The notes under the pieces: model-generated
Told to the model about the DNA's origin: nothing
What the model saw: the letters and a program-made list of their open reading frames with translations, nothing else
Database searches by the model: none
NCBI GenBank assembly: GCA_050084985.1
Contig: JBITNC010000001.1
Span: 53,754,001-53,818,000, forward strand
From: Nageia nagi
Taxonomy: Eukaryota; Plantae; Pinophyta
Length of the DNA: 64,000 nucleotides
Direction of reading: 5' to 3'
In this document: positions 9,881 through 62,923 of the stretch, piece after piece
Layout: each line of letters begins with the position of its first letter
Numbering within the stretch: position 1 is the stretch's first letter
Translations under genes and position numbers: made by a program

Positions 9881-9886
9881 TGGACC

Positions 9887-12135: not shown

Positions 12136-12183
12136 AAGAAGTTCTATTGTTGTAGGAGAAACAAGGTTCAAGTGTGAGGGAAA

Positions 12184-36150: not shown

Positions 36151-36862
36151 ATATCTTTCCCATGGAATTCCTTGATATATCTTCCATGTCAAGCTTGCTT
36201 GGTAGAAGTATCTTGAGAATTTATTTGTAAGAAATATAATTATGTAAGATTAATTTGAGCTTTTATTGAATATGCCATGCACATAAACAATCAACATAAT
36301 AGACATTGATGAAAGAAAAGCCACAAGTAATATTTGTTGTAACAAGCTACACACCTCATCATCCTCATAGTCCTTATCAATAAAATCACCTCTCCCATGT
36401 CCATCAAAAAGTTCATCATAGTCAAGTCACTCATATCATCACATACTCCATATTTAAATGTTATCGTTCAATTCTTTTTTGTGTCATCAATATGAATATG
36501 ATTCCCACAAACATGTCACAATAAAAATATTAGAATATGTTCATTTACAAATAAAAGTAAACCCACTAAACAATAACCCAAAAATTCATAAGGACATTAT
36601 TATAACAATGGCTTCCACACTTTTTCACATATCCTATTTCATTTAGCTGGAAAATAAGCAAACAAGATCTTTTAGTTAAATGGGAAAAAAATATTGTTAA
36701 ATATAACATTTCACCAAAAGTAACAAACCATACATCTACTTTTCTAGATATCATACTCAGCTCTAAATGATTATTTATTTAATACATGTAATAAATAATA
36801 TATGAATAACCCTTCAGCATAAACATACAAATAAGATACAAATCATACACCTAGTTTTCTAG

Positions 36863-37070
36863 ATCCCAGTTACCCACTTCAGTATAAAAACTTGAAAGAA
36901 GAACATAAGATGGAGCATATTTAGGCTCCAACAAAAAAAGAATTATTGCCACAAATTTCCCTACTCTTATGTGCTCTAAAAGCACCAAACAGATGCATCC
37001 ACACATCTAATTCAGGTTTTATGGGTATCTTGGCATTGAAAATTAAAGCTTCCTCGAGATAGCTTGCACA
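36863..37070 (-). pseudogene. PPR S2/E1/E2 fragment, copy 2
   Basis: Reads ASYLEEALIFNAKIPIKPELDVWMHLFGAFRAHK...VGKFVAIILFLLEPKYAPSYVLLSSFYTEVGNWD. Confidence 0.9.
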
Positions 37071-37403
37071 AAAACCAAATTTACATGAATCATATAATAA
37101 AATTAATTTTTGAATGCCTTATAAACTAGGCTTTTCACTTCTATCTTTAAAGAATTCTAATAATGAAATTTGGACAATAATTTTTTGTAGTTAAATATAC
37201 AAAATACGGTCTAATTCCATCAAGAATATACATAAGTAGTTATGTTCACTTCATAATATGATGTCAACAGTCAACAACATTATCTATTTATTTGAATATT
37301 TAATAACACTTTTTTTAAAATGAAATAAAATATAGTTACCTTTCTACTTAAAAGCATGCACCATGTCATTGTGAAAGACTCTTAGATCTTGCATTACTTT
37401 GTA

Positions 37404-37435
37404 TCAGTGATAATCTCCAAAAGAACATTCTCTTA
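37404..37435 (-). pseudogene. DYW-domain terminal fragment
   Basis: Reads ECSFGDYH*, followed by the same downstream sequence as the copy at 53763. Confidence 0.65.
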
Positions 37436-37639
37436 CATCAATGTACATAGTGAGTTTCATTCACTTGACACTATGTTGTCAGTAATCAACAACATTGTTT
37501 GTTTGTATATATATTTAATAATAACACCTTTAGAAAAAATGAAATGAAACATGGTTTTCTTTCTACTTGAAAGCATGCACCATGTCATTGTGCAACTTTA
37601 GATCTTGCATAATTACTTTGCATCATCAATCCATAAAAA

Positions 37640-38300: not shown

Positions 38301-39165
38301 TAGTCTCTTTGGTAGCTCCACCATTATGCAAGGTCAATATTTAAATGGAATTACAAATACTTGACTCCAAAATAATAATATCTCAACTATACCTTGTCTC
38401 TCCCCTAATAAATGGTTTCAAGTGATTATGAACAAATGGCATTTTTTTAATATCCCAAACTATAGACACACCCAATATATTTAAATGTGGTGGCTAAATC
38501 CCACGTACTCTATTTGACCTTCATTGAAAACTCCATGTGCATATTGAAATGGATAAACTCCTTTAAATAGGCAGCTATATAAATGTAACGGTCGATTTTA
38601 ATGTGAAGTAGGCAAGGGAGATCGCCATGTAACCATGTTGTGCAGGTCCACCTCACATATACCATAGAGAAGAGGGGGCGAAATCAAATAAAATAGGTGG
38701 CTATTAAAATAGAAGGGATCGCATTAAAGAAAGGCATATGCACTTAGAAAGAGGGAGGGCAGCCCTGAAGAGATTGGTGACTAATCCTCCAGTCCAATGA
38801 TATTTCCCAACCTTTTGACTGGTGCACGCAGCTCCACCTCGTCATCTGCCATGTCATTCATACGCGAGTCCCGCTTTAGCCCTTGCCGTTAACCTCCACA
38901 CTTCTGACTATGTATCTTGTGATGTGCACATTGCTGACTGGGACGTTGATTCATCCGACTATGCACCTTGTGGGTCCCATTAGAAATATTTTAATTTTTC
39001 CAAAACTTCAAACTTGAATAGCTTCCACAAATGGTGTCTGTTTTGCATGTCGTTCGAATCATTGAAGAGCTGACAAAGAGGTATTGGACATGGGATAGCA
39101 AAATACATCTTCTAAGATACTTCCCAATTTTGAGCTTTTTTATTTATACAAAATTTCATTTTCAA

Positions 39166-39255
39166 TCAATTTTCACAAGAACATTATTCAGGTTTGAAAT
39201 GATAGAATCGGTTTGCATCCCTCACAACAATGCCCTCTCCAACAACAACCTAAAA
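39166..39255 (-). pseudogene. DYW-domain C-terminal fragment
   Basis: Reads VVVGEGIVVRDANRFYHFKPE*CSCEN (consensus REIVVRDANRFHHFK.G.CSCGDYW). Confidence 0.9.
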
Positions 39256-39824
39256 ATATGCCATGGATTTTTTAATAAGAAACTCATTTATGTTACGTGC
39301 CTAGCAGGAAACCAAAATTTACATGAATTATATAATAAAATAGAATTTTGAAAGCTTTATAGATCAAACTTTTCACTTCTATCATTAAAGAATTTCAATA
39401 GTCAAATGTGGACAATAATTTTTAGTACTTAAATATACAAAACATGGTCTGATTCCACCCAAAAAATTATCTTGGTATGCTTATCCATGGACAGTACAAA
39501 ATCTTCATCAACCTAAAGAATTCAAATAATCAAAGCAATGACATGATATTTTTTTAACTAAAGAATTTTATACTTATCATTTCTATCACTAAAGAATTCA
39601 AATTATCAAATTTGGACAATAATTTTTAGCAATTAAATATGGAAAATATGATCTAACTCCATCCAAAAAATTCTTGGTAAATTTTTATCCATGGACATTG
39701 CAAAAATATGCATCAACCTATAAAGAATTTAATCCTAGATGGATAATGCAAATAGAGGCACAAGGTAATATAATGAATCCAAAAAAATGACTACACAAAA
39801 TGATAAAGAAAAGAAAAAGTGCAA

Positions 39825-39866
39825 GAAAAGAATGTACCCTTTTATCAACTTTAATCCAACTACATC
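39825..39866 (-). pseudogene. PPR E2/E+ junction fragment separated from 53122-53360 by the L1 insertion
   Basis: Reads (G)CSWIKVDKRVHSF. Confidence 0.85.
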
Positions 39867-39949
39867 GAAGAGCGAAGATGAACCTAGAATTTGAATTGGC
39901 ATGGGCAAGAAAGGTGTAGAATGGCTATGGCATAGGTTCATAAAGAGGT

Positions 39950-41329
39950 TTGGGCAAGAAAATGAGTATTGGGCAAGGTGCAAGAGCTGATATGGGGGAT
40001 CGAGGATCGAGTTCTAGCAATAGGCAAGAGGAACATTCTCTAAATACCGAACAAAGAACATTTGCACAAGCGGTAAGCGACGTGTTTGCAAAGGAGAACC
40101 CACCTTTGGTAAGTTCTTTCCACATGGTTGTTGAAAATGGAAAGTTGGTCGTACCCCGAAAGTGATTAAATACATGAATAGGGAGGTGTCTTCAAATCTT
40201 GTAGGGAAAGTCTCAGGGTCGTGATCTAACATGGACTCCATTAAACAATGGCCATGGCTAGGTTGAAACCACTTGGAATGATGGATTTATCAATTATGCC
40301 CAATGGGTTTTTTATGATTAAATTTATGGTAGAAGAAGATAAAGAAAGAATTTTAAATAGAGGACCATGGTTACTAGGCAACAGGATGCTATTTATGAGG
40401 ACTTGAGGCCCCAACTTCAACCTAAAAACTCAAAGCATAAACCATGCAGTAATTTGGATCAAGTTACCCCAGTTACCTTTTTACCTTTGGTATGAAGATG
40501 TGCTCAAGGCCATAGGAAATGGAATAGGGAAGTTTGTAGTTATTAATACAGCTACTCACTTGAGGAGTAGATTGGTGAACACACAAATTAGCATCAATAT
40601 TGATTTGGATGACCCGTTAAAGGAATCCTTGGATATCGAGATGGAGTATGGCACTAGGAAATAGATATTCGAGTGTGAAAATCCTTCAATGATATGTGAA
40701 GAATGTAAGAAAAGATGCCACTTATCAAATGCATGTCTGATGAAACATAAGAAGCTATTTCCAAGAAAAGAATGGAGGAAAAGGTCGAGGGAGGATCTGG
40801 AGCAGAATCCAAATAACAATACCTCCAACATGGGGAAATAAGAGAGAGAAGGAGGGTGTAATACTAGTAAAAAGAGGACTACACTAGTAGAAAATGCAAT
40901 GACCTCCAGAGAGCAAGAAATGGTGGTTTGGCAAGAGCGGTGGAAGTGGAAATAGAGAAAGGAGACGAGAATATCTCTAAATCTAATCCAACAAAGATAA
41001 AAGGAGAATATAATCAGGGAATAGGAAATCCAAACGCAAAGGATCCCTTAGCCAATGTGTTGTAGATTAAGGTGGTTCCAACCACTCAATGGGGAGACAT
41101 GAAAGAAAAGGAGGAAGAGATTCAAGAGGAGATAGCTTTGGAGAACCCAAATTATATAGAGGAGGAAGAAGGAGATTGCAAGGATGAGCTCCTTGAGACC
41201 CCTATAAGGAAAACCCATAGCAAAATGAGGGCTTTGGTGGATGTAGGTAAGAAGAAATTTGTGGGAAGACCTTCTCATGCTTCTCAAAGGAAATCTAAGA
41301 TAGAGAAGGTGATGACAAAGGGAACCTAA
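39950..41329 (+). pseudogene. L1 ORF1 (DUF4283/RRM-like region and zinc knuckle), degenerate
   Basis: Motifs: TFAQAV; LVGKV; NGFFMIKF...ILNRGPW; IWIKLPQLP; IGNGIG; CEECKKRCHLSNAC. Confidence 0.88.
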
Positions 41330-41381
41330 TAGTACTAGAGTTAGTATTGTATGGGAAGAAGACTACCCTGAAGGGTGGATA

Positions 41382-44300
41382 ATGAAAGTCCTATATTGGA
41401 ATGTGAGGGGTCTCAATACCCTTGTAAGGCATAAAACCTTAACAACATTGAGAAAATACTTAAAACTGGATATGGTGCTAATCCAGGAAACTAAGGTAGT
41501 TGAAGAAAATATCCCCATAGTTCATAAGAGCATCTGGTGTGATCTTGGGCTAGTGGCCCAACCTTTGAGAGGCTTAGTTGGAGGTTTATTTTATTTATGG
41601 AATGTAAATAAGTTGGAAGGAAGAGAGATTACAAGTAATGATAAATTTTTTTTGATGCTATTGAGGGATTTGGATTCCAAATTTGAATGGATGATAAATA
41701 ATGTTTATGCTCCCACAACGGTGGTTGGAAGTGCAACCTATGGAGAGATCTCAATGATTTCAAAGCTACTCATGTTGATGTATCATGGGTTCTAGCAGCA
41801 GATTTCAATTGCACCTTGCTTCCCTCTAATCAAAAATGAGGAAATGAGTTATTTACTAATCATATGGGTGAATTTGTGCTTTTCTTTTATGTAATAGACT
41901 GATGGATGTGAAGTTAAAGAAAGGAAAGTTTACTTAGAGAAATAGGAGACTCAGGGATAAGTTGATTCAATCCAAATTAGACAGGTTCTTCCTATCCTAA
42001 GAAGTAATAGAACTCTTTATGGATGTGGTATGATTTCCTTCCCAAGAATAGGGTTAGATCATAATCCAATCTTGTTGGAATTAGGGGAAAAAATGATGAT
42101 CTTTGGCCACCCTTTCCATTTTGAAAAGATGTAGCTGATGGATGGGTCATTGGAAGAATTGATAAAACTATGGTGGATGAAATCTTTTTTAGGGAATAAG
42201 TTGACTCAATACGTAAAGGAGATTTGATTCTTGAAAGGGAATTTGAAAATTTGAAACAAGGAAGTGCTGAGAAACATCTTTGTCAAAAAAGAAGAATTAC
42301 AACAAAACCTATTGGCTCTAGAAGAGAGAATAGTGAACTCAAGTTAAAACAACTAGATTAGATCCCAAGAGAAAGATTGGCTATGTGAATGGAAAGGATT
42401 TTTTGGCAAAGGAGGAAAGCTATTGGAGACATAAATCTAGGGTGAAATGGTTAAAGGAGGTAGATCACAATACCAAGTTCTTCCATATTTCAACCTTGAG
42501 GCATAGGAGTCATATTAAGATTAGAGAGATTGTCAAGGCGAATGGCTCAACCACATGAGATAAATGGCATATTAGAGGGGAGGTAGTGTTCTTCTTTATG
42601 GCCTTGATTGGTCAAGAGGACCATTGGGACTCTAAGACTACAAAGCATCTATTGCAAAATATCCTAAAGAACCTCTCAAATGATATGAATAACTATCTTT
42701 GCAATCCCTTCTCTAAAGAGGAAATCAAAAGAGTGGTCTTCAATCTAAATGGAGACAAATCCCCAAGCCTGGATGGCTTCCTAATGACTTTCTTTCAAAT
42801 ATTTTGGTACATAGCGGGTAAGGAGGTAGTAGAGGTAGTGCAAGAGGTGCAAGCTCTAAAAAGTGTGCTAAGGTACATAAATTCTATATTCATGGTATTA
42901 ATCCCCAAGATAGGTGGTGCAAAGTCTTTTGGAGACTTCAGAATGATAAGCCTCTGCAACACTTTGTATAAGATCTTTTTGAAGATCGTAGCTAATAGAT
43001 TAAATAGTATCCTCCCGTTTATCATATAATAACACCATAGGATCTTTATCAAAGGTAGGTAGATTCTAAATGGCATTATCTCTATTCATGAACTGATCCA
43101 TGCCACTATTAGTGCTTGTAAAAAAGGAATGTTCTTGAAGTTGGATATGAATAAGGCCTATGATTGGGTCTCTTGGAGGTTCTTGTTAGAGGTTTTAAGA
43201 AGCTACATGTTTGCAAAAGATTGGGTTACTCGTATTTAGGCCTAAATTTCCCCAGTAATATTTTCAATGTTGGTGAATGGATCTATAGCAAGCTACTTTC
43301 CCAGTAAGTGGTGCTTAAGAAAAGGAGATCCTCTCTCCCCTTACCTCTTCATCATTCTTATAGAATATTTAGGAAGAGCTTTCTTTGGAGCTTTAAGGGA
43401 CAAACAAATTGAAGGTATTATTTTAGCTTCAACATTTTCATTGATCATCTTTTAGCAATTTGTTGATTATACCATTGTATCCACTAGGTCCTCTCTTCCC
43501 CAAGCCAGGGTCATTAAAGGTATATTAGAAGATTATGAGAAGGAATCTCAATAAAAGGTAAATTTTGGTAAAAGTAAACTAGTCTTTATCAACACTCCTA
43601 TAGCTTTATAGTTTGCTGTGGCTAGATTTTTTGATGTGGAATTGAGGATTTTCCAGCTACATACTTAAGAATACCTCTTTTTAAAGGGAGAATTAAAGAG
43701 GAGTATTGGAACCTGAAGCTAGATAGAATAGCCAAGAAATTAGTAACATGGAAAGGGGCCCTCTTAAGTCCTCCTTAAATTAAATCTTCAAAGTATCCCA
43801 ATCCATTTGCTATTTGTGTTTAAAATATGAGGCATGGTAGGCATGAAGATCGAGCAAATCTAGAAAACCTTTCTTTGGGGAGGGGTTAAGGAGAGGAAAA
43901 GAATCTATCTTATGTCCTAGGGAAAATGTTGCCTATCTAAAAGCAAAGGAGGGTTGGGGTTGAGAAATGTGAATCTGATGAATAAATCTCTAAAGGGTAA
44001 GCTAGGCTAGAAACTTACAAAGGAGGAAGATGTCCCTTGGGTTAAGATTTTAAAGGAAAAATACCTCAAGGAGTCATCATTATTGGAGGAACTTGGAACC
44101 TTGACATGGTCATACTTTTGAAATAAAATCCAAATTCTAAGGGATTGGTTGAGAAATGCAAGAAGATGGAAGATTGGAAATGGGATGCAAGTTCGCTTTT
44201 GGGATGATCCATGGTTGATTAAAATCCCTTTGAGCCAAAGCCCTCGCTTTGGAGGTCTTAGAAGATTCCTTGAACCACACTTTGGTAGCTTGGTGAGAGA

Positions 44301-44594
44301 TTACCTTTAGAGAGGGAAAGGAAGGAAAGTGTGGGAATTTTTTATTTGTGAGGTTCCAAGGGAGTTGCAAAGAAATTTAAAGGAACTAGACCTCCTCTTG
44401 AAAGCTTATATGTTAGCAGTATGGAAGGATCAGGATGAATTTGCCTAGTTCAAGGAGAAGAGTGGTGAGTACTTAGTGAGATTAGGGTATGATTTCATAA
44501 GGCCGAAAGGAGGGGTTTGGGATTGAGCAAAGAAGGTATGGAACAAACATCTCATTCCCAAAGTAAATATGTTTTGCTAGATGGTTATGCATAA
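41382..44594 (+). pseudogene. L1 ORF2, N-terminal part (APE, RT, start of zf-RVT)
   Basis: Motifs: MKVLYWNVRGLN; IQETK; NVYAP; SKLDRF; KSPSLDGF; FRMISLCNTLYKI; KLDMNKAYD; LRKGDPLSPYLF; QFVDY. Confidence 0.95.
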
Positions 44595-44880
44595 TGTTAA
44601 AGTATTAAATTCACTTAGGAGTGTTTTATCTATTTCCTAGGCATTCTTACTTCTAGCTAGTTTGTTGTGGCGATAACCACTTCTTTGTCACTTTGTGCAT
44701 TTTACCTTCACGCATGTTTGGCATGTTGTTGTACATTAGCTAGTATTTTTCTTATTTATTTGGGCTCCATTCTCATTATGTATTGAGATCAGTTTGAGGA
44801 TTTCATCTTCTCTCTCGTTCTTGTGGTGCTCTTGCATTTTCCTTTTTGGGTGTTATTTGCTCTTCTTGTAAATCTTTGCA
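44595..44880 (+). repeat. Copia 5' LTR (286 bp)
   Basis: About 89% identical to 50246-50530 by manual alignment. Confidence 0.97.
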
Positions 44881-44892
44881 TGGTACCAGAGC
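44881..44892 (+). promoter_or_regulatory. Primer-binding site (tRNA-iMet type)
   Basis: TGGTACCAGAGC directly after the LTR. Confidence 0.9.
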
Positions 44893-46128
44893 TGGTTGGA
44901 TTCTTGCAGACATCTGGACTTCTTCTCTGAAGCTTTCTCAAATTTGATCCTTTTTCTGGGTTGTGCAATTTCTCTAGTTGCACTCCCTCTTTCTCTTCTT
45001 AGTTTGAGATCATCTAGCCTCCTTTTGAGCCCTCGATATTTTTACTACTCGTGAGGCCCCCTCTTCTCTTTAAGGGCTTCTATCCATGGCCTGCATCCCA
45101 CATCGGGTATTCTACGCACCTCTAATTCTGCAGTACTCACGTACAGATCTCACGCCCACCGTGGGCTCTCTCTCTCGCTTACATTGTGGACGACTTGGTA
45201 GCTGGGGATTCTCCAGCTCATGGCTACGGTTTAGAGCTTCATCATTCGACCCTCTGTGTGCAGACCTGCGCATCATTTTTTGAGGATCTGCTTAGCAACA
45301 TTTTTTTATGGGTGCATTGTTCTATTTTATGGTTGCTTACGTGAACTTCGGCCTTTATTCCCAGCGTTATTTGCTGTTCAACTTTTCACACCTGCATGCA
45401 CACTGCTATGTGGCTCTCTCCCCACTGGCATGGTCTATCTCTTAGCCTCCATATCTGTAAATGTTGCCTTCTCTGGCTTTACAGCTTTCTCGCGACCTCC
45501 CTCCTGCTCATCGTCTGCCTTTTTGCGTGGTGTTTTCACTGGCGTGGATCTCTCTTGGCTCCTGTTGCAGATTGTGGCTACCTCTTCAGCCTCGAGTGCG
45601 GTCATCCTTCTGCTATTCGTGGCCTTCTGTTGAACCTTCGAGCATCGCTATGTTGGCCCTTCTCTACGAATTTGTGGTTGTTGTCAGTATAGTTGTCCTT
45701 CTATTGATCGTGGTCTTGTGGGCATTGGCGTTGTGGGAGAATTGTGGCCTGGACTCATTCTCTTCCTCGACGCTGCAAAATATTTTTTTTGGTGTGTCTA
45801 TAGTTTTATGAAGTTAAAATTTATTTAATTTTAAATTGAATAAATGTTTAATTCCCCTATAGTTTAAAACGACCATTTAATTGATTTTTGGAGGCATACG
45901 GATTTAATACCGTATCTTGGGCAAACAAACTTGTATTGGAGTCCCATTTTTTGTGTTGGAAAGTTCAAGATGAGATCTTTTCAACCATTTGCATTGTAAA
46001 CCTTGACCGTGAGTTTTTTGGATGGTCATTTGAAAGTAAATAAAATTTGCGTGGGGTCTTCTTGGTGTCGAGTGCAGATTTTGCATCTCCCTTGTTGCTT
46101 GGTTCCTTGGATTATTTCATGTTTTGAG

Positions 46129-49100
46129 ATGGAGCATTCATCATTTAAAATTAAACCTCTCACACCTCATAACTATCACATTTGGAAACCATGGATGTTG
46201 ACAGTATTAGCACAAAGAGGACTAAACATGCTCATTAAGAAGCAAAAATTCACATTCAAATCAAACTATAAAACTTGGTCATTCACAAAGGTAACCAATG
46301 AAGCATTTGGGCAAATAAAATCAAATGTTAGTGAGAGTTTGTGGTTTCATCTTGATAGCATAACTACACCACATGGAGCATGGGATAAATTAGAGTTTTG
46401 TTTGGTAATGTTGACATAATGAGGGTCATGCAAATTGATGTCCAATTTACTACTTTGTCTCTTGATGACTATCCCACCATGGTTGATTATCTCACTAAAT
46501 TTAAGGAGTTGTACACACAATTGTTGGGTAGTGGTAAAAAGAAGAAATAGGATGAATGCATTTATTTGATTTTATTAAAATTGAAGGTCCCATTCCATTT
46601 ATTTTCTTCTACATTTTTCTTTACAAAGGATGCTATGGGTGATAAATTCATAATGCCTAAGTTAGAATAATTTTATGAGTGTCTTATAAGGGAAGAGACC
46701 AAAATTTCAACTCTTGAGGCATCTTCATCTTCATCTAAGGCATTGATAGCATCCAAAGGTAAAGGTAAGCCCAAGCCTAAGCCTAAGCCCACTACACCAT
46801 AGCCAACTCCAAAAGCCCCTGACTCCAAATCCACTCTAGAGAAAGAGAAGCCTACTTTTTCTTATTGTAGGAAGCTTGGACTTGTCATTAAAAAATGTTA
46901 TAAAAAGATGAGAGATGATAAAAAGAAAGCAAAAATATGAAACTTCTCATGTATTATGAAAGGCTTTGAATGCTCGTGGGAAGGAACATTCTATTTCAGA
47001 TAGTTGGGTTATGGATTTAGGTGCCTCTCATCACATGACTCGATCCAGAGAGTATTTTCCATCTCTTTGTTCTACTTATACTTCTATTATTGCAGTTGAT
47101 AATTCCTCTCACATTTATGTGAAGGGGAAAGGGGACATTCCTATTGTAGGTGGTCACATCCTTGATGTGATTTTGGTCCTTGATCTCTCTTCCAACCTTC
47201 TTTTGGTGTATCAAGTCTATAATACTAGTGGTGGGAGGATTGTTTTATTCACACTTGATAATTTTGAGATTCATAGTTTGCAAGAGCCATAGTCACTTTT
47301 TGTATGAGGTGATGTTGATCATTCCTTAGGGCTATATTAGTTTAAGGGATTTGATGATGTCAATTCAAGTACTAGGTTAGTTTCCCTCACATATTTTATG
47401 AGTAGAATTTGGCATGAGAGGTTTGGGCACCTCAACTATAAATATTTGCAGGAGTTGCATTCTCATGATATGGTTACTGGTTTGCCTAAGGTGTCTTGTT
47501 ATAATAGTGTTTTCCCTAGCTATGCCCTTGGGAAACAACATCAAGACCCTTTTCCTAAAGTTAAAGCTAATCATACATCTTCTCTCTTAGAGTTGGTGCA
47601 TAGTGAATTGATGATCTTCCCACACCCATCCTTCATTGGAGCTCAGTATGCACTATCTTTCATTGATGATTTCTTGATATGTACTTGGGTGTATTTTCTC
47701 AAGTATAGGAGTGATGTCTTTTCTCATTTCAAAGTCTTCAAGGCTTTGGTTGAGAATTAGTCTTCCAGTTGCATCAAGAAGCTTCATATAGATAATGGAG
47801 GGAGTACTTTAGCATAGATTTTTCAAAGTTCCTTGAGATGCATGGTATAATTCATTAGCATTGAGTTCCTCATACCCTATAGTATAATGGAGTTGCAAAA
47901 AGCAAGAACAAAACACTGAAGGAGATGGCTAGTTGTATGATGCATTCTCCATACTTGCCTTCTATATTTTGGGCTAAGGTAATTAATTATGTAAACTATA
48001 TTTAGAATGGCACACCTCATTAGGCACTTGATCATATGTCTCTTGAAGAGGCTTGGAGTGGAACCAAGCCAGATGTGTCTCATTTTAGAGTGTTTGGTAT
48101 TCATTCTTGGGCCTTCATTATGAATAGCAAGTGTAAGGCCTTGGAAAAGAAGAGCAAGCCTCTCATATTTGTTGGCTATAGGGAGTATATGAAGGCATAT
48201 TAACTAATTGATCCTAATACCCATGATCTTTTCTTCCACACTTATGTTCAATTTGATGAGTGCCTTCCTAATTCTCCCTCTTCATATCCTTCCTTGGTAT
48301 TACCTAACTCCTATGACACATCTTCTGAGGTCTTCCATGGGGAGGATATCCCTAAGGTTATTTCTCCCATAGTAACTCTTGATCCTCCTACACTTGTAGT
48401 TGCTACTACTTCTCCTGTTGATGTTGCATCTTCTTCCATTATTGGTAATCACATGCCCAAATGGGCTTGCTCTACACTTAAGGATATAATACCTTTCATC
48501 TAGGATCTCCCTCCTTCCCTCTGATATTCCATCAATTCCAATCTAGTTGATCAAGCAAATTCAAGTGATCCACATATTTTTTTAGAGGCTCATGGAATAC
48601 CATAGTGGGATGATGCCATGGTGGTTGAGTATTCTTCCTTACTAAAGAATAATACTTGGGAGCTTGTTTCTCTTCCCCATGGGAGGAAGTTGGTTTGATG
48701 TAAATGGGTGTATCAAACCAAGTATGTAGCTGATGGTTCCATTGAAAAGTATATGGCTCATCTTGTTGCCAAGGGGTTCTCACATGTTTAGGGAATTGAC
48801 TACTTTGAGACCTTTTCTATTATGGCCAAGATGGATTCAATTTGCCTTATACATACTCTTACTACTTCTTGGGGATGGTTGGTTTTTTAGATGGATGTGA
48901 AGAGCACCTTTTTACATGGTGATTTTCATGAGGCAATCTATATGGATCAACTTGTTAGTTTTATTTAGGATTCCTCACTTGTTTGTAGACTTATAAAATC
49001 TCTCTATGAGAAGATGGATTCTTTTCTCATCTCCATTGATTTTGTATATTTTTCCTCTGACCCTACTATCTATATCTGGAACAATGAGCAAATACCATTA

Positions 49101-50040
49101 TTGTGGTATTGTATGTTGATGATCTTCTCATCGGAACCTCCCAATCTTATATTCAAATAGTTAAACAGGCTCTCTCTTAGATATTTGAGATGGTAGATAT
49201 TTGACTTTCCCATTACTTTATTGGTTTTCAGGTGATAGAGATAGATTCAAGGACTTCCATATATTAGTAAAAGTATGCCTTGGATCTTCTTAAGCAATTT
49301 AGGATGGTGGATTGTAATCCTTCTTTGACACCTTTTCAGAGTGGGCTGACTTTGACTTCCACTTGCACTTCACCACTGTGTGATGCTACTTTATATTGCC
49401 AATTGGTTAGGAGTTTTCTATATCTCACTTATACTTGACCAGATATTTCATATGTAGTTGGCTTGTTTCTTGGTTTGCATAGACCCCTCATGAGTCTCAT
49501 TGGTAGATAGCTAAGAGGATTCTTTGATATGTGAGAGGTACTACCCACTTCAATCTGCATTATACAAGAGGTGATCCATTGTTGAGTGGATATACAGATT
49601 TTGATTGGGTTGGTTCTTCTAATGATCATTGTTCCACTTTTGGCTATGTATTTTATCTTGGTATTTATCCCATTTCTTGGTCATGCAAGAATCAATAGGC
49701 TATTACACTATCATTTACTGAGGTAGAGTATAGAGCAATTATTTATGTGATTCAGGAGGCACTTTGGCTTTGATAGTTGTTGGAGTTTGGCTATTCCCAT
49801 TCCCAGATCATAGTTATTTAGTGTGATATTCAGAGTGTAATTCATATTTTATGTAATCTTGTTGAGAATTAGCACACCAAACATATTAAGGTTCACATGT
49901 ACTTCATCTATCAACATATTTAGGATAGCATTCTTAGCTTGGAGTACATTCTTATAGAGCAATAGACTATAGACATCTTCACTAAATCCTTTGCATTACC
50001 TCATTTCCTTGAGTTTCATGGATTGCTTGGGGTGAAGGAA
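46129..50040 (+). pseudogene. Copia gag-pol pseudogene
   Basis: Motifs: LTPHNYHIWK; WVMDLGASHHMT; WHERFGHLN; LELVHSEL; DNGG; NNTWELV; MDVKSTFLHG; LYVDDLL; GYTDFDW; TKHIKVHMYF; DIFTKSF. Confidence 0.95.
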
Positions 50041-50245
50041 GTTTTTCTTGGGGGGTGTTGATGAGGACATCTTCCTCTCCATCCTCCCTTTTCTACTGTG
50101 AGATGGTTTTTTTCCCATGTGGTTTTTTCATCATCTTTTAGCGTATTCTTTACACATATTATACATGAATGCATAATCAAGCCTTTATTGTCAAGACTCA
50201 TTTCTGTGGATGTGCCACTTTATCCCCTTGTTCACTTAAGGGGGG

Positions 50246-50530
50246 TGTTAGAGTATTAAGTTCCCTTAGGAGTATTTTATCTATTTCCTAGGTATTCTTA
50301 TTTCTAGCTAGTCTATTGTGGTGATAACTACTTCTTTACACTTTATGCATTTTACCTTCATGCATGGTTGGCATGTTGTTGTACATTAGCTTGTATTTTC
50401 CCTATTTATTTGGGCTCCATTCTCATTCCTTATTGAGATCAATTTGAGGATTTCAACTTCTCTCTCATTCTTGTGGTGCTCTTGCATTTTCCTTTTTGTA
50501 TGTGATTTGCTCTTCTTGCAAATCTCCACA
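50246..50530 (+). repeat. Copia 3' LTR (285 bp), preceded by the PPT AAGGGGGG
   Basis: PPT at 50238-50245; TGTTA...CCACA ends; followed by the TSD. Confidence 0.97.
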
Positions 50531-51415
50531 CATAATAGGATTCTCTCATTAAATAATCTAAAGAGAATATGTTTTTCCTTCCTAAGTAGATTCCCCATAT
50601 ATAAGAATGAAGAGGAAGATGTGAATCACCTTTTTCTACATTTCCCTTATGTGAAAGAAATTTGGTCTAAGTTGTTTGATTCCTTCACGTGTAAATGGGT
50701 GACCCCTAGGAAGATAACTCTCCTTTGTTTACAATGGGAACCTCCAATGGAAAGTAGGAGACTAAAAGAGTTGTGGTGAATTAGTTTATCACATGTGTTA
50801 TGGGGCATTTGGAAGGAAAGGAATGCATGAATCTTCAAAGAAAAGAAGTCAAGCGAGTTGGAAGTCTAGACTAAGGCAAAAAGTCTAATTATGGACAATT
50901 TCAATATAGTCCACTTTAAGGATGATTGGAAGTCTATGAAGTAAGTAGCTATCTTAGCTGAGTGGGGAACCAATCCATATTTAGGTGCAATAAATAACAA
51001 CCCAAGGAGTAAGTGCCATTGGGAACCTCCTCTTGAGGGATTTTTTAAATTAAATTTTGATGGGACTTCTAAAAGAAACCTAGGTAAGGCAAGTATGGAG
51101 GTGTAATTTAGGACTATAAAGGATACATTATTCTAATCTATGCTTACTTGATTGTTCATAAATCAAGCTATTTTATAGAGGCAAAAGCAGTTCACAAGGG
51201 GTAGAGATTGTTGTAGAAAGGGACCTCTTTCCCTTAATGATAGAAGATGATTCTAAAACCATCATTGACCACTTGAAGGGAGTCTCAAGGTTGAGTTAGA
51301 ATATTAAGACTCTCATAAAATATTGAAAAAGAATGGTGGAAGATAAATTTATTATCTCTATGTCCTATGTTTTTTGAGAAGCTAATCACCTTGCAGATGG
51401 GTTCAAAAATGTGGG
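50531..51415 (+). pseudogene. L1 ORF2 C-terminal part (zf-RVT and RNase H)
   Basis: Motifs: HNRILSLNNL; EEDVNHLFLHF; WGIWKERNA; WEPPLEGFFKLNFDGTSK; IEDDSKTII; EANHLAD. Confidence 0.9.
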
Positions 51416-51879
51416 AATTTACAACAATAAGGGATAGATCTAGAAATTATCCCTACCCTTGTATGTTCAAAATCTTTGTATTAATAATTAATTCTATCAA
51501 AAGAATGCAAGGATTTGCTTGGCCCCCTAGGCAGTGGTATAGTGCTATATTGAAAATGTTAGGGAAGTGGATGGGAGAGACCACTATATTTACATGGGAA
51601 GAAGTGAGCTAGCAAAAAAACATGAGTGAGGTTGTCACTTCTCAAAGTCCCATACTCAAATTTGGCATTAAATTTGGAGAGGTACTTTGGATATTATACT
51701 TTAAGGTCTCTCACATGAGGGAGGTGATAGAGCTAGAAGGTGATTCAAGAAATGATGCATGCAAAATCATTGATTGCAAATCTAAGGGGTGGGAGGCCTA
51801 GGTTTGATTTATCACCATTAATTGACTCAAAATTTACAAAGCACATGCAAAGAGCCTTGGTGTTAATGATAGAATTCAA

Positions 51880-52800
51880 GACAAGGGGAGGAAACAAAGG
51901 GCACAAGGACTTCCATCTAGATCTGACAAAGCTCCTTGTAAGTGATTATGTCTAGGAAGTATTGAAGAAGGTGGGATATTGGAACGTTTTGGAGCTTTTT
52001 GAGGGTTATGATGTCAAAGTCTTCCATAAAATGGTGAAAAGCTAGGTGGAGGGATGTGTAATGGTGGGGGCCTTTTCATTTGAAATCTCCATGGTGATCT
52101 TGGTATAAATATTTAGTTTAGCAGATGAAGGTCTAAAGATCACAATGGACAAATGCTTGTAATAGACAAAGCTTAATTTTTTCTCTTCCTTGAAGATAAT
52201 TGGTTGGAATGGGAAATACATCCTAAGAGAATAATTTCCTCAACCATGGTCGAAGGTAGATGGTATAATTATTAATTACTTCACCCTAGATACATAGATG
52301 AAATAGGTGCATGGATACCATTTGGTGATCCTGAACCATATCTGATGGTGAAAGAGGGTCAACATTTGTTATTTTATGTTAAAATAATTAGAGAAACTAT
52401 TGGAACACTTTCATAATGGGAGAACAAAATTTACCTTGCATTAAGGGCTCTTTCTACTCATTTCTAAATTCATGGCCAAAAAATAGGGTTGGATGGGGGA
52501 CTCTGATGATCTCATGCAAATAATCAAGAAACCTAAGTGTGGAACTCTTATATGGAATCAAAAACATAAGAAACAAGCTAAAGGAGGGATTGCATCTCAT
52601 AGAGGAGGAGCAAGGGGGTGGTGAAGGAGGACTATGAGGACTTTAATGAAGTGATACCTCCAACATCTCTAGTAGTCAAGCAAGGATCTATGAAGAAGGT
52701 AAGGATGACACATGGGGTGTTGTTGAAGGATATTGGAGCCATTAAAGAAGCTCTCTTGGTAGGATTGAACAACATCATCATGATGGTCAATAAGCTCTAG
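51880..52800 (+). pseudogene. Extra ORF (ORF3) in the L1 3' region, homologous to Athila accessory ORF 1
   Basis: One frame (51880-52485) interrupted only by stops reads GGNKGHK...EVLKKVGYWNVLELFEGYD...FPQPWSKVDGIIINYFTLD...VHGYHLVILNHI...RVNICYFML...LH*GLFLLI. The extension to 52800 is tentative. Confidence 0.72.
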
Positions 52801-53121
52801 CAACATGTTTACAACGAGTTAGATGTGTAGTGTCAGGTGTTGTTTATGTTGTGGCTATGTGTTTTGACCCAAAAGTGTAGTGGGTGTGGTAGTGTTATAT
52901 CTTGGAATATGTTTATTTCATTATTTATTTTGGCCTAGAATGGCATAGGGTAATGTGGCCTTGTTCTATGCATTGTTGTAGGGTGCTAGAAGACATAATA
53001 GGTGTTTTTTCCAACTAGTGGATTTTTTTGTAAGGTCCTAAAATGAAGTTGAATATCACAAGGCACATGTAAAAATTTTTATTAGTTCCCTTTAAAAACC
53101 ATCACTAATATAAAAAAAAAA

Positions 53122-53360
53122 AATCTAACTACATCCAAGTGTCTTCTTGATTCCTCTATCTTTCATCAATGTTCTTAATCTTTGAACATCATCCGAGTTG
53201 CCCACTTCAACATAAATATTTGAAAGAACATAATATGGAGCATATTTAGGCTATAATAAAAAAAAGGATCTAAAAGTACCAAGTAGACATATACACACAC
53301 CCAATTCAGATTTTATGGGCATCTTGGCAATGAAAATAAAATCTTCCTCAAGATAGCCTA
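53122..53360 (-). pseudogene. PPR S2/E1/E2 fragment, copy 3 (the L1 target)
   Basis: Reads GYLEEDFIFIAKMPIKSELGVCICLLGTFRS...PKYAPYYVLSNIYVEVGNSDDVQRLRTLMKDRGIKKTLGCS*I. Confidence 0.92.
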
Positions 53361-54130
53361 GATGATATACCAAATTTGCATGAATTATGTAATACAATTG
53401 ATCTTTGAAAGCCTTATAAACCAGCCTTTTCACTTCTATCATTAAAAAATTCTAATAATTAAATATAAACAATAATTTATAGTAGTTAAATATATAAAAT
53501 ATGGTCTAATTCCACCCAAACTATTATTAGTATGGTTATTTATGGATAGTTAAAAGTTGCATCAATCGACAACATTATCTATTTGTATAGCAGTTGCATT
53601 CACTTGACAATATGATGTTAACAATCAACAACATTGTCTATTTGTACAAATCTTTAATAACAACACTTTTTGAAAAAAATAAATAAATAATATTTTTGTT
53701 TCTACCTGAAAGCTTGCACCATGTCATTGGGCAAGACTCTTTAGATATTTCATTACTTTGCATCAATAATTATCTCTACAAGAACATTCTCCATGTTTGA
53801 AATGATGAAATTGGTTTACATCCATCACAATAATGTCCCTTACAACAACCTAGAAATATGTCATGAATTTTTTTTATAAGAAACTCATTTATGTTATGTG
53901 CCCAATAGGCAAATCAAATTTACATTAATTATATAATAAAGCAAATTTTTAAAAGCCTTATAGACCACAATTTTTGCTTCTAACATTAAAGAAGTAAAAT
54001 AATTAAATGTGAATAACAATATTAAGTAGTTAAATATATGGAACATGGTCTGATTCCACCCAAAAAATATCTAAGTAGTTAAATATACAATAATTTTAAG
54101 TAGTTAAATATACAAAACATGGTCTATATG
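53361..54130 (-). repeat. Modular mosaic repeat (right part)
   Basis: Same AT-rich modules as 35740-39720. Confidence 0.85.
53763..53858 (-). pseudogene. DYW-domain C-terminal fragment
   Basis: Reads VVVRDIIVMDVNQFHHFKHGECSCRDNY*. Confidence 0.9.
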
Positions 54131-55063: not shown

Positions 55064-55326
55064 AACACTTGATTCTACTTAATCATGAGTGTTTGATCCA
55101 TAAGGCTCTATCAATGTATCAAACATAACTCATTTTCACAGGAGAGTAGCATTTCTTTCTAGGATTTTAATGATACACTATTTATTTCATGGGTGGGAAA
55201 GAACACTCGAGTCTACTTAATCATGAGTGTTTGATCCCTGAGGCTCTATCAATGTATCAAACATAACTCATTTTCACATGAGAGTAGCATTTCTTCCTAG
55301 GATTTTAATGATAAACTATTTATTTC
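55064..55326. repeat. Near-identical tandem duplication, period 138 bp
   Basis: aacact.ga.tctacttaatcatgagtgtttgatcc...ggattttaatgata.actatttatttc at 55064 and 55202. Confidence 0.95.
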
Positions 55327-58300
55327 CCTCATTATTCCATGCAACTAGGAACTATAGTGTTTATCATCAATGGTTGCAAGAAGTTAGGTTGCTACCAAAA
55401 GAATACAGTGCTAGATCATAATAATCAAGCCAGTAGATAATGCATTTTTAATAAGCTATAGTCCTAGAAGAATGTAGTTAATGAAAAATAAAAAGGATTA
55501 TGATTGAAATAGTACAATAGCTCAAAGACATCAAGTTCTCATACCTTGGTGCTGATTATACTTGTTCACTATGTAATCTAACATAGTTTTAATCATAATT
55601 ATACATTTGTAGATGGTCTCTTTTGCTATTCTTAGTCAAGTAGAGTATTTAAGTATATTAATGGTAGAAACTCACCCAATCATAGATGTAAATATACAAA
55701 TAGTGGACTATTGTAAGTCCAAAAGGTTGGATATTCTAGCAAATTTGCCCAAGTCTATAAGATGCTTTCGTATGTGATAATGCGAATTGATAATGCTTTT
55801 CCTTTTGCAACATGTGGCTATCTGTTACACTTTTTGAATATTATGTATGAAATGTTATCTTAAGTTGTGGCTATGTATTGTGATTACAAGACCCCAAGGG
55901 TAAGATAATTTACTATTCTTAATCTTGGCTATGGATTGTTGCTTATGCTATAATGCCTAGGCTATGTAGTATTAATTCAATTTTTAGTTTAATGTGTTCA
56001 TCTCTTTCTTTTTCTCTTAACCCTTTTATCTCTTTTCTATTACTTTTAACCTTTAAAATAGATATTAACTAGCCTAAAACCCAAAGATTGAGTAGAAAAT
56101 AAACACCAATGTGTCTCCCACCACCCTTTGCTCTTTTAAGGACCCTACTATTGTGAGCAATGGATAACATGACCAGACCAAACCCTTGAAGTTACATTAT
56201 ATCGATCAATAGTAGAAAATTCTATTTTTAGCATGCTCAATGAGACATAAGATAAATTTCATATTTAGTGGGCATAAATAGGCCAGATACTTGTGTCTGG
56301 TTAGCTATCACTTTATGCATTAAAATATTATAAGTTTTTTGTTACCTTATTGGTAACTTTGCTGACAACCAATCAATATTTTGAGCCTTGGAACCTCTAG
56401 AATGTAGAATTACTAGAAGTAGTACCAAAAATTATCATATATAGCCTAGATTTCAAGAGCTATCAGTTCCTCATAGGAGGACTAGGCAAAAGATTTCTTA
56501 GATTTTATCCCCTCAAATTCCTCTAAGGGTTGTTCCATTATAAGCCATATTTGATTCTACCCCAAAAACTCCTTACCCTAATATAAAGATCCAAGCATGG
56601 CTCAACCTACTCATGTTAATTTTCCTACTTAGAATAATGGCCATCCATTGGTAGTTACTACTAACTCACCAGCTATTCCTCAAGTAGCTTTCAAAGTTTT
56701 TCCCAAGTATGATGGATCTGGTAAAACACCATATGATCCTTCTTAAGATGTTTCTCTTTTGGTTTCAATCTCTGATATCACTAATGAAATGGTGATGACT
56801 AGATTGCTATCGCATTCCTTTGAAGGTAAAGTAGTTGAATGGTTCAAAACTCTTCCCCTTCAATCTATAAATACATGGGGGGAGCTATGTCAAGCTTTGA
56901 TCAAAATATTTATTATTGATGGTGATGATAGTACCCTCCTAATCCTTATAGCATGTATCAAAAGACACCCTCATTATTCTATTGATGATTTTAATATCAA
57001 ATTTGAGAAAACATGGAAATTTATTCTAGTAAGGATTAGACCAACAAATGCACAAGCTCTAGTATATTATAGGAAGGCCTTCATCTCTTATCTTAATATG
57101 CTTATTATTATGTTGGAAGATACCTTCCATGATATTTACCAAATAGCTAAAACCTCTAAGCATACTTTGGTATCTTCTGAAAAGATGCAACCAAGAACCA
57201 TTATGTCTTTGTTTCCTAATCTACCTCCTAAACAACTTCCATAAATTTCTCATCCTAGAGTGTTAGCCTTGCCACTTACTCCTAAATCTATTTTTAGAAT
57301 CAAGTACTAGTAGTACCTACTTTTGTATCTATAAGTACAAATATTTATTCTAAATCTCAAGAGGAAGATAGAATAAGGCAATTGGAGGTGACTATTAGGA
57401 ATCTTACCAATAATATCACTCTACAAGAAAGGTAGAATCAAGGTTTTAATTATAGAAGATATGATAATTAGTATCAACCTAGATTTTAGCCTAAGAATAA
57501 CCCACCAAAATAGCCTAATGATCCTAACAAAATTAACAATGTAGTTATGGTAAGTCTTGCAAAGAGTGATGCTTTGGGTATTACAAAATGGTGCCCTCCA
57601 TGTTCAGCTCCTCATTTCTCAAACTCATGTGTCATCTATCAACACCAATATTTGGGCTTACATTTAAATTAAATGGTGGAAACTATATCAGATCACACTA
57701 TTAACCTTAATATGATTAATTTTTAGCTTCTAGGCTATGCTAAACAATAAGCCCAATTGTGTACAAACTAGAGCCTCATCTTCAGCGACCTTGTAATAGC
57801 CCCAAGTCACTTAGCAAAATCAATAGGTAATTCCAATGCAACCTAAACTAAAAAGAGATAAGGCTCCTATGATCCCACCATAAAATCAAGAAAACCAACT
57901 TCTCACACATCTAGGTCATATTTATTAGGACCCAGGTAATACTACCTCTATAGTAGTAAATCCTACTGCAACTAGAAAAGAAGTCCTAAAGAAGGAGAGG
58001 CCTCATCCATTAAGATATCTTTTTATTATTGATCATCATAAGGACAAGGCTACTTAACAATATAGAACACATAAACTAGAAAAAATAAGTAATTTTGTCC
58101 CATATGCTCCATACAACATTATGAAAGAACTAAAGAAAACACCTTCTAAAATGGTCATGTTTGATGCATAAGGATTCCAAGTCAAATGGACCTTTTGCAA
58201 GAGGCTTTGAAGTTAAAAAATAGTAATAAAAGGGTAAATTAGGGTAATGTTATCTTTGCAATATTTAATAATGTCCCTCCAACTCCTATAGGTATAAGAA

Positions 58301-58910
58301 GATCTCTACATTTTTTATCTTTATCTTAAATTAGAAGGTTGAGTAGTTGATAACTGCATGATAGATATCGAAGTTGCTATTACCATAATTTTCAAAGCAA
58401 TTGCAAATGAATAAATTATATATTACTATATGCATTGATGGTGTCATACAATTGGATTCCTCTTCTGTAGATGTTATTGGTAGTGTTAAAGGAGTTTCAA
58501 TAACTCTTAATGCATTCCTTGATATTTGTGTCATTCAAGATATTATTATTATTGATCTTCCACCTCTATTTGGAATATGTTTATCCAAAGAGTTCACTAC
58601 CAAATTGGAAGGGTACCTAGCTTTATATTATACACATCTTTTACTTCTCTTCCAAAATAAACAAGTCAAGATTGTAAATGAGGAAATCAAGAGTGTTCAT
58701 CTTAAGAAGATCATAGAGCTAAATTATATGAATGGAATTGAATGTGTAGAAGTGTTTGAAAGGGATACACTTAAAGAAACATTATTAACAATTGAAATTT
58801 TTTTAGCAAATGACCTAAATTATCAAGTCATAGACATTGGTATGGGAAATGATTATTTATATGAAAATATGCAACCAATTTCAATCACAACTGAAAGGGA
58901 GGTTGAGATA

Positions 58911-59275
58911 TGGATAATGTACTTTTATGAGGTAAGATGTAAACATGGATGTAGAGTTGGTGTTGTTTTTAAATCACCAAAAGGACATATGAGAAAATTA
59001 TCATTCAAATTCATATGGATTTGAACAAATAATGATGTTGAATATAAAGCCCTTTATTTAAGGTTATTTAAAGAAATTAGTATGGGTATCAGATGTCTAA
59101 TTGTGCATGGTGATTCTGAACTAGTCATAAAGTAAGTTAAAAACTAGATTAGTGCAAAATATCACTATCTAAATACCTATAGGAATAGAGTATGGGATTT
59201 GCTTGAGTCATTCTTGGATATTAATTTTATATCTATTCCTAGGAGGTACAATCAAGTGGATGATGCACTTGCTAG
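58911..59275 (+). pseudogene. Additional (archaeal-type) RNase H domain between protease and RT
   Basis: Reads WIMYF...GVVFKSP...TNNDVEYKAL...VHGDSELVI...IPRRYNQVDDALA. Confidence 0.88.
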
Positions 59276-62200
59276 AAAAGAGGCATGTTATAATCATGTT
59301 CATCACAAAAGAGGATGCTTTGGAGTTAAAGTTCAATGTAGGCCATCAGTGCCTGATGCTACAAACTTCAAATAGGTGTTTGATTATGATAAGCATATTA
59401 TGAATTTCCTATTGGATGAAACAATAGGTCATACCTTTGGTATTTAAGAATTATTTAACTATTTTCAATATTCAAATGTAATTAAACTCATAAATAATTT
59501 CATACCAAAAAGTTTACTCTCTTTTGAAAGATTGTTTGATTTAGAAGATGTTCAAAAGGCCAAATCCTTAGCTATCCAAAAGGAGGGTAATATTCAGCTA
59601 AAAATAGAACTTAGGAAGTATATAAAAGTTGGATCAGAGTGCTCTAAAAAAGAAAAAGGGATCATGTTTTAGATCTATCATAATTTTTCAAAAACAATTA
59701 CTTAGATTTATGAATGATCTGAAGACATATGACAAAGATGTGATCCAACACAACATTGAGCTTGAACTAGAAGCCAAACCATATAGGAAAAAATAAAGGA
59801 TCATTAACCCAAAAATAGAAGAATCTATGAAACAAAAATTGATTAAACTACTTGATTCAAAAATTATCTATCCAATCAAATATTCTTCTTGGTTGCCAAT
59901 CTAATCCTAGTTAGAAAGACGAGTGGAAAGATCATATTATGTGTAGATTTTAGAAACATGAACCAAGTGTCTCTTAAAGATAATTATCCTCTTCCTCCCA
60001 TGGAACAAATCCTACATATAGTAGCTAGAGCTTGCTACATTTCTATGATTTATGGCTATTTAGGATTCAATCATATTTGGGTAAAGGATAAGGACCAGTA
60101 CAAAACTACATTCATAACCAAATGGGGGACATTTGCTTTTTAGAGGATGCCTTTCAATCCTTCTAATGTAGGAGCTATTTTTTAAAGAGCCATGGACCAT
60201 GCATTTGACTATCTAATAAATAAAATTATCCTAATTTACTTATATGATATCACACTATTTTCTAAATGTAGAAAGGATCACCTAGAACATCTTAGACAAG
60301 TTTTTAAAAAATGTATAGAGTTTGGCATTTCAATCAATTCCAAAAATTCTATTTTTATGGTTAATCAAAGGAAATTACTTGGACATATTATCTCAAAAAA
60401 ATGATTAGGAATTGATCTAGATAGAGTAAAAGCTATTGAAGCATTACCACTCCCTTCTAATAAGAAATCCTCGCAATCTTTCCTTGGTCAAATCAATTTT
60501 TTAAAAAACTTTATCAATGATTTTTTAGAAATTGTATCTCTAATCACTACAATGTTGAAGAAAGATGTATTTTCTTGGTTAGAAAAAGAAAAACAATTTT
60601 CTTGGTTAGAAAAGAAAAAAAAATTTCTTTAGGATAAAAAAAGGCTATAACATAAGCTCCTATATTGAAAAACCTAGATTGTTCAAAAGATTTCATTATG
60701 TATAAGTATGGAGCAGAGAAAAGTATTGTTGCAATTCTAGCACAAAAGCATTACTAGAAAGAGGAACATTCAATTGCCTTTCATAGCCAAATGTTGCACC
60801 AACATTAAAAAAGTTATTCATTTATTGAGAAGCAAGTGTTTTTCATAATAAAAGGACTTAAGAAATTTAAGCATTATGTGTCTCATAATAAGATTCGTGT
60901 ATATACTATTCACCCTGATGTGAGAAATATGTCATACAAAGAGAATTAGGTGAAGGAAAAGTTGGATTTATTACCAAAATAATGGAATATAATGTATAAA
61001 TTAAACTAACCAAGCTTATTAGGGGTAGGGCTATCTATGAAAATATACTAGAAGCTTCACACATGATTGTTGTTATAGAGAATGAACAGCATCTTAATGA
61101 AGAAGGTGATTGGATAAAATAAATTATTTTTTATTTTTAAATAGGTAAATATCCTAAATATTTGGATATATTTCAAAGAATGAGATTCATACTATAGGAT
61201 TTGAATTTTGTGATGATAGATGACCATCTTTATAGGAAGAACTTTGATCAAACCCTATTGAGATGTGTAACTCATGATGAAGCTTGGAGAATATTACATG
61301 AACTTCATTATGGATTCTCTAGAAGATATTATAGTGGTCCAACTACAATAGCAAAAGTACTTCAATAAGGGCATTATTGGCCTACCATATTTTAGGATTC
61401 ATTCAATATAAACCAAGTGTGTGACAAATGTAGCAGATATGTGGAAAAAACGAGACAAGTTGTTATGCCTCTTAAGCCCATGATGGCTGAGTAACCCTTC
61501 CAACAATGGTGTATGGACTTCATTGGTGTTATAAACCCAAATTCCTTAGCATACCATAATTTTATCTTGATTACTATCAATTATTTTACAATATGGTGAG
61601 AAGTTATACCATGTAAAAATATAGATTAAGAGGCAGTGATGGTAATGATCAAAGAATAATCACTCTCTTTGGTATCCCATAGACTATTGTGTTAGACAAT
61701 GATCATGCATTCATTAGAGCTAATTTATCATACTTTATTATTTAGTATGAGATATACTACTTATTTTTTTCAAATTACTACCCACAGGGGAATGGACTAG
61801 TTGATTCAACAAATAAGAACCTAGCTCAAATTATCAAAAGAATAATTGAAGGGAATCCCATATAGTGGCATACATAGTTGAACTATCCATTATGGGTAGA
61901 CAAAATTAGTATCAATTTAGCTATCAAAACATCCCCTTATGTATTAGTATATGGTAAAAGACTAGTATTGTCAATTTATTTTGAATTACCTACATTAAAA
62001 ATTCTACAATAATTGGAAGACTATGACTTTGAACCACTACAAGTAAGGTTTAATCAGATCTTTAAGTTGGAATAAGATCTAAACAAAGCATATGAATCCT
62101 TCTAGCACCACCAATGGATAGTTGAGAAATGATTTGACAAGACGTCTTCCTAGGTAAAGTTTGAAATAGGAGATATTGTCCTCAAATGGGATGAGAAAAG

Positions 62201-62923
62201 AGCAAAGCCTGAGAGATATCATAAATTTGATTCTCTATGGAGTAGGCACTATATCATCACTCAAGCTATGTAAAATAATGCATTCAAAATACAAGATGTC
62301 ACTTCATTTTAGGAACTATCTATCCCAGTAAACGAGATCTATTTGAAATATTACCAAGTGATAGGGTGATTCCATAACAACCACTAAAAATTATATAGTT
62401 TATAAAATATATGTGTGTGTGTGTGTTTTTGTACATTCTTGTAGCCTAAACACATTGCCCAAGGAGGTAGATATCCATTAATGCAAACCATTAATTAGGC
62501 ATGGCATGTAATTACAACTTGCTTACTTGGCATAAATTGTCTAATCAAAAGGAAAACATTTAAGAAAAAGATTTCCTTGGATTTTCCATCATCCACACCT
62601 TATCTCCAAGTATGAATTCAACATGATCCAATTAATTCATTCCCACCTATCACCCACCATGCCATACTGAATGTGAGTCCTGATAGTCCTTGGAAATTAA
62701 TTACTATTAATGGACATGTCAACCATAAACCCTAGGCAAATAAAATATGCTCTCTCACCCTAATATTCTTTACTTAGTGAATTTACAAGCACAAATATTT
62801 GAGATGACTTGAACTTAGAGCATATAGAGCAATTGAATGAGAAGAAAGGAGTTGTAGAGTTTCACATAGCAAGGTTTCAAGCTCTCAATGCAAACTCATT
62901 CCATAAAGAAGATTGTAGACACC

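Follow-up and report, generated by a model that had tools for sequence, protein, structure and literature searches.

A third open reading frame in a Nageia nagi L1 retrotransposon: a putative accessory protein with a predicted VANC-like fold

Plant L1 elements, a group of long interspersed nuclear elements (LINEs), have two open reading frames (ORFs) according to reviews (PMC9033089; PMC5203782; articles are cited here and below from parts of their text), whereas an L1 copy in the conifer Nageia nagi adds a further sense ORF (ORF3) of at least 300 codons on the 3' side of its RNase H domain, raising the questions of whether ORF3 is a gene of the L1, where it came from and what its product does. 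The copy lies within a stretch of 64,000 nucleotides, hereafter the window (GCA_050084985.1, contig JBITNC010000001.1, positions 53,754,001 to 53,818,000 of the forward strand; Table 1), which is AT-rich repeat DNA with 32% GC and strong CpG depletion. The titles, abstract openings and text portions searched contain no description of a plant L1 with a third ORF. Analysis of the window and of database relatives suggests, with a probability of about 0.55, that the product of this third gene is an accessory protein that has the VANC/PMD/ATHILA fold, binds DNA or chromatin in the nucleus and aids escape from silencing.

The preliminary description of this locus placed the third ORF at 51880-52800 inside the L1, and it does lie there, because the element is bounded by target-site duplications (TSDs; AATC(C/T)AACTACATC, the second copy lying 3' of the poly-A), by the poly-A itself, and by contigs of run X1 in which the L1 flanks are joined directly, as empty sites. 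Reading frames scanned against Pfam with X in place of stops gave the domain order DUF4283, RVT_1, zf-RVT and RVT_3; the scan returned no APE endonuclease match at the ORF2 N-terminus, where the motif at the ORF2 start presumably fits that enzyme. DUF4283 in ORF1, reverse transcriptase (RT), zf-RVT and C-terminal RNase H in ORF2, a poly-A and TSDs of variable length are common to this copy and to the RNase H-bearing plant L1 LINEs reportedly treated by Smyshlyaev et al. in 2013. The element is a plant-type RNase H-bearing L1, departing from that type in having a third conserved ORF rather than two only. It is older than the Copia element that it contains, since the latter, with long terminal repeats (LTRs) about 90% identical, is nested within the zf-RVT.

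Stop density by itself is insufficient to call ORF3 a gene. The preliminary description reported a frame broken by stops only; the ORF3 frame has 12 stops in 206 codons and the remaining two frames have 22 and 11 in 205 each, compared with 9 in 406, 9 in 274 and 4 in 183 codons in stretches of ORF2. ORF3 is called a gene because it is homologous to intact proteins, not because of its stop count; codon periodicity was also detected in it (p 4e-4). All eight motifs listed earlier for the L1 side fall in one frame (51887-52445), but that frame starts 5' of 51880, with a candidate start Met at 51845 or 51866 and in-frame alignment of relatives from 51782, and is interrupted by a frameshift near 52600-52620; one relative (P0007) aligns into the tail as far as 52669, across the frameshift. 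The predicted linker is charged and of low complexity, with basic patches, and the tail is helical and, as judged by eye, likely a coiled coil. The spacer frame upstream (51421-51865) has 4 stops in 148 codons, and its segment at 51505-51800 is possibly a small ORF, an ORF3 leader or an ORF2 tail.

An initial protein search confirmed one of 63 candidates (P0003, 67% identical to window ORF3); a profile search of 1.84 billion representatives returned 36 matches at E<=1e-3, and a wider profile confirmed 100 of 2036 candidates. A family hidden Markov model (HMM) built from 23 segments of database relatives, the window sequence excluded, gives window ORF3 255 bits, and hhalign pairs the ORF3 core with the P0043 subfamily at 98.8% over 190 columns. 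By sequence comparison, window ORF3 is a member of a protein family with Ginkgo members, Ginkgo gene models making up five of the ten members looked up, as fits a gymnosperm source. A relative of 646 amino acids (P0140) comprises the core, a charged low-complexity linker and a helical tail, a layout that is likely the full ORF3 design. Two of the Ginkgo gene models (P0016, P0025) have the family domain in two copies each, and another (P0038) has it fused to a PPR-DYW protein, probably as an annotation chimera. The 48-row family profile had no match at E<=1 in a sequence search of the PDB, a viral fold library gave nothing at E<=0.001, and scans of flanking DNA confirmed none of 79, 227 and 38 pattern matches in viral contigs and none of 67 and 46 in prokaryote genomes.

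Linkage of the family to L1 elements extends beyond the window. A metagenome scan, in which at least one of 586 pattern matches was confirmed, yielded a contig (L001) carrying zf-RVT (E 1e-4), RVT_3 (1.3e-4), a spacer and an ORF of the ORF3 family, in that order; tblastx aligns the contig colinearly with the window (sum E 5e-16). Judged from these alignments, the third gene position, from RNase H to poly-A, is common to the window L1 and the distantly related L001; the two ORFs share 41 of 147 residues (28%) and fall in different starred subfamilies of a 26-row tree, and the arrangement of RNase H, spacer and ORF3 appears either old or to have arisen twice. A weak spacer-like motif is found upstream of the core in L001, P0060, P0061, P0078, P0086, P0102 and P0115. 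Among sequencing runs, one of DNA and none of RNA was listed as containing matching sequence. Run X1 placed 57 contigs, 48 of them less than 90% alike, on 51000-53125 (RNase H, spacer, core and tail); among the pieces listed none bridges RNase H and ORF3 and 51426-51638 is uncovered, and therefore the paralogues do not demonstrate L1 linkage. Among listed variants of the core in these paralogues, a small and selected sample, 9 of 16 are synonymous, compared with 26% expected (p 0.009). ORF3 is very probably an integral, old gene of the L1.

The preliminary description also held that ORF3 is homologous to an accessory ORF of an Athila LTR element at the other end of the window, one family being shared by LTR and non-LTR retrotransposons in this genome. 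The RT lineage motif of the pol of that element (2900-13300) is one that we take to match Athila. Pfam returned no RVT_3 and no chromodomain match in this pol, and on sequence the element fits the Athila type, defined as Ty3/gypsy whose pol lacks both an archaeal RNase H and a chromodomain (PMC6317226). A candidate 3' LTR starts at 12184 and has no partner in the window, the 5' end of the element being outside it. Neither window ORF3 nor the Athila-side frames have a Pfam match. The eight motifs of the Athila side occur in the order originally given but are scattered over three frames, the N-terminal ones being weak, and direct alignment of the two ORFs did not bear out the claim: the Athila-side ORF is the top non-self site of ORF3 in tblastn, yet with E 0.30-0.66, and pairwise tblastn and blastn did not reach significance. 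The plain family HMM finds two colinear pieces there, of 10 and 5 bits, and a frameshift-aware alignment, with gap and frameshift penalties chosen ad hoc, gives 43.6 bits, compared with at most 24.5 in those of the 220 tiles that are clear of both ORFs. Four profiles gave 38.6, 40.7, 17.2 and 40.6 bits, where the best scores from 150 shuffles for each (2-base blocks were permuted, approximating dinucleotide shuffling) were 23.8, 21.5, 21.0 and 22.1; the P0043-type profile fails to recover the ORF, and the score of the N-terminal half was equalled or exceeded in 1 to 60 of the 150 shuffles, depending on the profile. What stands of the homology is that, by family profile, the Athila-side ORF belongs, distantly, to the ORF3 family, with significance over its C-terminal half only (7888-8141). 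The closeness of the two was overstated: 21 of 72 residues are identical and the Athila-side branch measures 2.56, so that any sharing is ancient. Retroelements with and without LTRs probably exchanged the ORF3 module long ago. The same identity and long branch rule out the local Athila family as a recent source by transduction, a reading that was also considered.

Extra ORFs of Athila elements (ATHILA ORF-1, PF03078; Transposase_32, PF20167), to which no function is assigned, likewise lie in sense, 3' of the RT gene, but sit on LTR elements, whereas the carrier of ORF3 is a non-LTR element. The comparison with these two Pfam families proposed earlier yields a weak likeness, in Pfam and Atlas alike, but the Pfam scores stay under the curated cut-offs: one of 48 members matched at E 0.0043, none of 21 did in another set, and P0140 scored 13.9 bits where the cut-off is 45. 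A Transposase_32-like 3' ORF of a sunflower Athila is predicted to be nuclear (PMC11728184), and the origin of the extra ORFs of LTR elements is undetermined according to a review (PMC7264820). Bdelloid rotifers have ORF3 types common to LTR and Penelope-like elements (PMC5408684), a precedent for one accessory ORF family across unrelated retroelement classes, although those belong to animal elements and are esterase and exonuclease enzymes rather than proteins of a VANC-like fold.

An analogy with VANC, offered in the preliminary description as speculation, has gained a structural lead from a predicted fold. In a prediction made on a relative of the ORF3 protein, the core of about 200 residues folds like residues 314-528 of VANC21 of VANDAL21 (PDB 9LNJ/9LNK), the predicted core fold being common over about 170 residues; a second model (P0007, pLDDT 55) gave short helical-hairpin matches only. 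A VANC-like fold for ORF3 is regarded as likely. ORF3 and VANC21 are both transposon-encoded accessory proteins with a core, a variable linker and a helical tail, but identity of ORF3 to VANC21 and PMD proteins is just 10-12%, Pfam scans of relatives gave no DUF1985, DUF287 or PMD match, and VANC is carried by VANDAL MuDR elements, ORF3 by an L1 retrotransposon. VANC21 binds a 9-base motif concentrated in the non-coding parts of its element and strips methylation (PMC5735166); MAIN/MAIL, opponents of Polycomb silencing, have a PMD that is similar to the DUF1985 domain of VANC21 (10.1101/2024.09.27.615353; PMC13547354), and VANC and the Athila domain have been modelled as coiled-coil pentamers (PMC13547354). 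In the parts of the literature examined, no fold link from ATHILA or Transposase_32 to VANC is stated.

An envelope (env-like) role, which the preliminary description had argued against, is rejected for ORF3, as no membrane helix is conserved: the best 19-residue hydropathy is below 1.4 in seven of ten intact relatives, and the high values coincide with a predicted beta-hairpin and the next helix for the window copy and for two of the relatives, and lie outside the core in P0047. LINEs form no particles. Because a conserved third gene of such elements belongs to it, the envelope reading is removed for the wider family as well.

In the proposed mechanism, ORF3 would be translated from L1 RNA by re-initiation or via an internal promoter in the spacer; the protein would go into the nucleus, oligomerise through its tail, bind the DNA or chromatin of its own element, and reduce methylation or Polycomb silencing, such that L1 copies stay transcribed. 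By analogy with VANC, we infer a nuclear, oligomeric, chromatin- or DNA-binding protector of its element; for an anti-silencing function taken by itself, the chances appear even. More tentatively, the third gene of gymnosperm L1s may be an anti-silencing factor of VANC type that these elements encode for themselves. A single superfamily with the VANC/PMD/ATHILA fold may then arm the three major classes of plant transposon alike, namely MuDR DNA transposons, Ty3/gypsy elements and LINEs, and the much-debated 'env-like' ORF of Athila may be a chromatin counter-defence protein rather than an envelope. The VANC21 fold match makes an "unknown accessory ORF" directly testable, by DNA binding and methylation. 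If the proposal is true, the giant, heavily methylated genomes of gymnosperms contain retrotransposons with a dedicated counter-silencing gene, and new sequence-specific chromatin modifiers can be drawn from the ORF3 family.

No VANC-type motif array was seen in this old and heavily mutated L1 copy, the stretches 39860-40000 and 51400-53125 showing two-copy repeats only, and other nuclear roles for ORF3 therefore enter consideration. A real, selected L1 gene with a VANC-like fold might do another job, such as directing insertions to chromatin or repeats, importing the ribonucleoprotein into the nucleus, or binding RNA. All the sequence evidence is equally compatible with such a job; the L1 is inserted in a dispersed repeat; and PMD-fold host proteins counter Polycomb and not DNA methylation, so that the fold leaves the function unfixed. 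Both characterised carriers of the fold (VANC and MAIN/MAIL) nevertheless oppose silencing, and another job is regarded as unlikely.

Readings in which ORF3 is no separate L1 gene, or no kin of the Athila-side ORF, fare less well. An extension of the ORF2 C-terminus past RNase H, fragmented by decay, could account for the stop-poor frame of the spacer, for relatives that reach upstream in frame to 51782, and for six database proteins in which a motif resembling that of the L001 spacer is read in frame with the core; it is improbable given that none of the relatives scanned contains RVT_3, that the P0140 frame is without RNase H, and that the upstream extensions of relatives are unlike one another. 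A search of longer relatives, of 1039-2965 amino acids only, confirmed none of 3835 candidates, which is weak evidence regarding fusion to ORF2. That the match to the Athila side arose by chance, or that the ORF there is foreign to the Athila element, is quite improbable: the pairwise E of 0.3-0.7, the one profile in four that misses the ORF, and a 5' LTR beyond the window, which leaves the element bounds not fixed, speak for it, but four analyses rank the site first among non-self sites, its match runs colinearly over the frameshift and scores well above tile and shuffle controls, and the ORF lies in sense after pol, 5' of a purine-rich motif and then TG at 12170-12185. Very improbable is a functionless passenger, LTR-element DNA acquired by 3' transduction once or twice, despite the higher stop count of ORF3 than of ORF2 in this copy and an L1 linkage seen at two loci only. 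The same position in two L1s with ORFs 28% identical, the synonymous excess among paralogues, and a local Athila ORF too distant to be the donor all argue otherwise; the one-off transduction named in the preliminary description is likewise not favoured.

Table 1. Coordinates of the L1, its nested element and the Athila-side features in the window
Feature	Position	Strand	Basis
5' TSD of L1	39853-39866	+	13/14 bases shared with 53122-53135; empty-site joints, run X1
L1 LINE body, decayed, split by Copia element	39867-53121	+	
ORF1 DUF4283 domain	40272-40574	+	Pfam E 5e-22
ORF2 first part: endonuclease region (by eye), RT, zf-RVT start	41382-44594	+	RVT_1 E 1e-19; ATG at 41382
Nested Ty1/copia element	44595-50530	+	CATAA target duplication; LTRs ~90% identical
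ORF2 last part: zf-RVT and RNase H (RVT_3)	50536-51420	+	Pfam E 9.5e-5, 0.008; colinear with L001
Spacer from RNase H to ORF3, stop-poor frame; possible ORF3 upstream part or small ORF	51505-51800	+	
ORF3 core domain, ~210 codons, one frame	51845-52495	+	12 stops in 51866-52483; 255 bits to family HMM
ORF3 charged linker and helical (likely coiled-coil) tail	52496-52800	+	One frameshift crossed near 52600-52620
3' untranslated region and poly-A	52801-53121	+	Codon periodicity absent (p 0.99); poly-A read directly
3' TSD of L1	53122-53135	+	
pol of non-chromovirus Ty3/gypsy element, Athila type	2900-6100	+	RVT_1 E 0.005; RT_RNaseH E 7e-7
Accessory ORF, frameshifted, 1.4 kb 3' of Athila-type pol, sense	7537-8144	+	Significant part 7888-8141

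The dispersed repeat family that hosts the L1 insertion occupies 35700-37600, 39160-39850 and 53120-54130, and several further copies lie in the window. In the 3' region of the Athila-type element, about 1 kb at 8427-9464 (-) is 69-71% like 55189-56213 reversed and is likely an inserted LTR of the family of the Ty3/gypsy element at 55189-62300. Decayed, charged, coiled-coil-like coding remnants at 10200-11700, 5' of the candidate 3' LTR, may represent either a second accessory ORF or the tail of the one already described for the Athila side. Tandem arrays of units of about 100 bp and of 17 bp occupy non-coding parts of the same element (6346-6513, 9512-9881, 12516-12721), and, should the analogy with VANC be right, are candidates for target arrays. 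A further Ty3/gypsy element at 55189-62300 has its RVT_3 RNase H (E 1.4e-9) 5' of RT, the TatI/TatII arrangement as given in PMC6317226; the frameshift-aware scan of the window gave no ORF3-family match 3' of it. Ty3/gypsy pol fragments at 1-1700 (+) and 13900-15400 (-) are 67-73% alike, the first with an SH3_Tf2-1 integrase tail.
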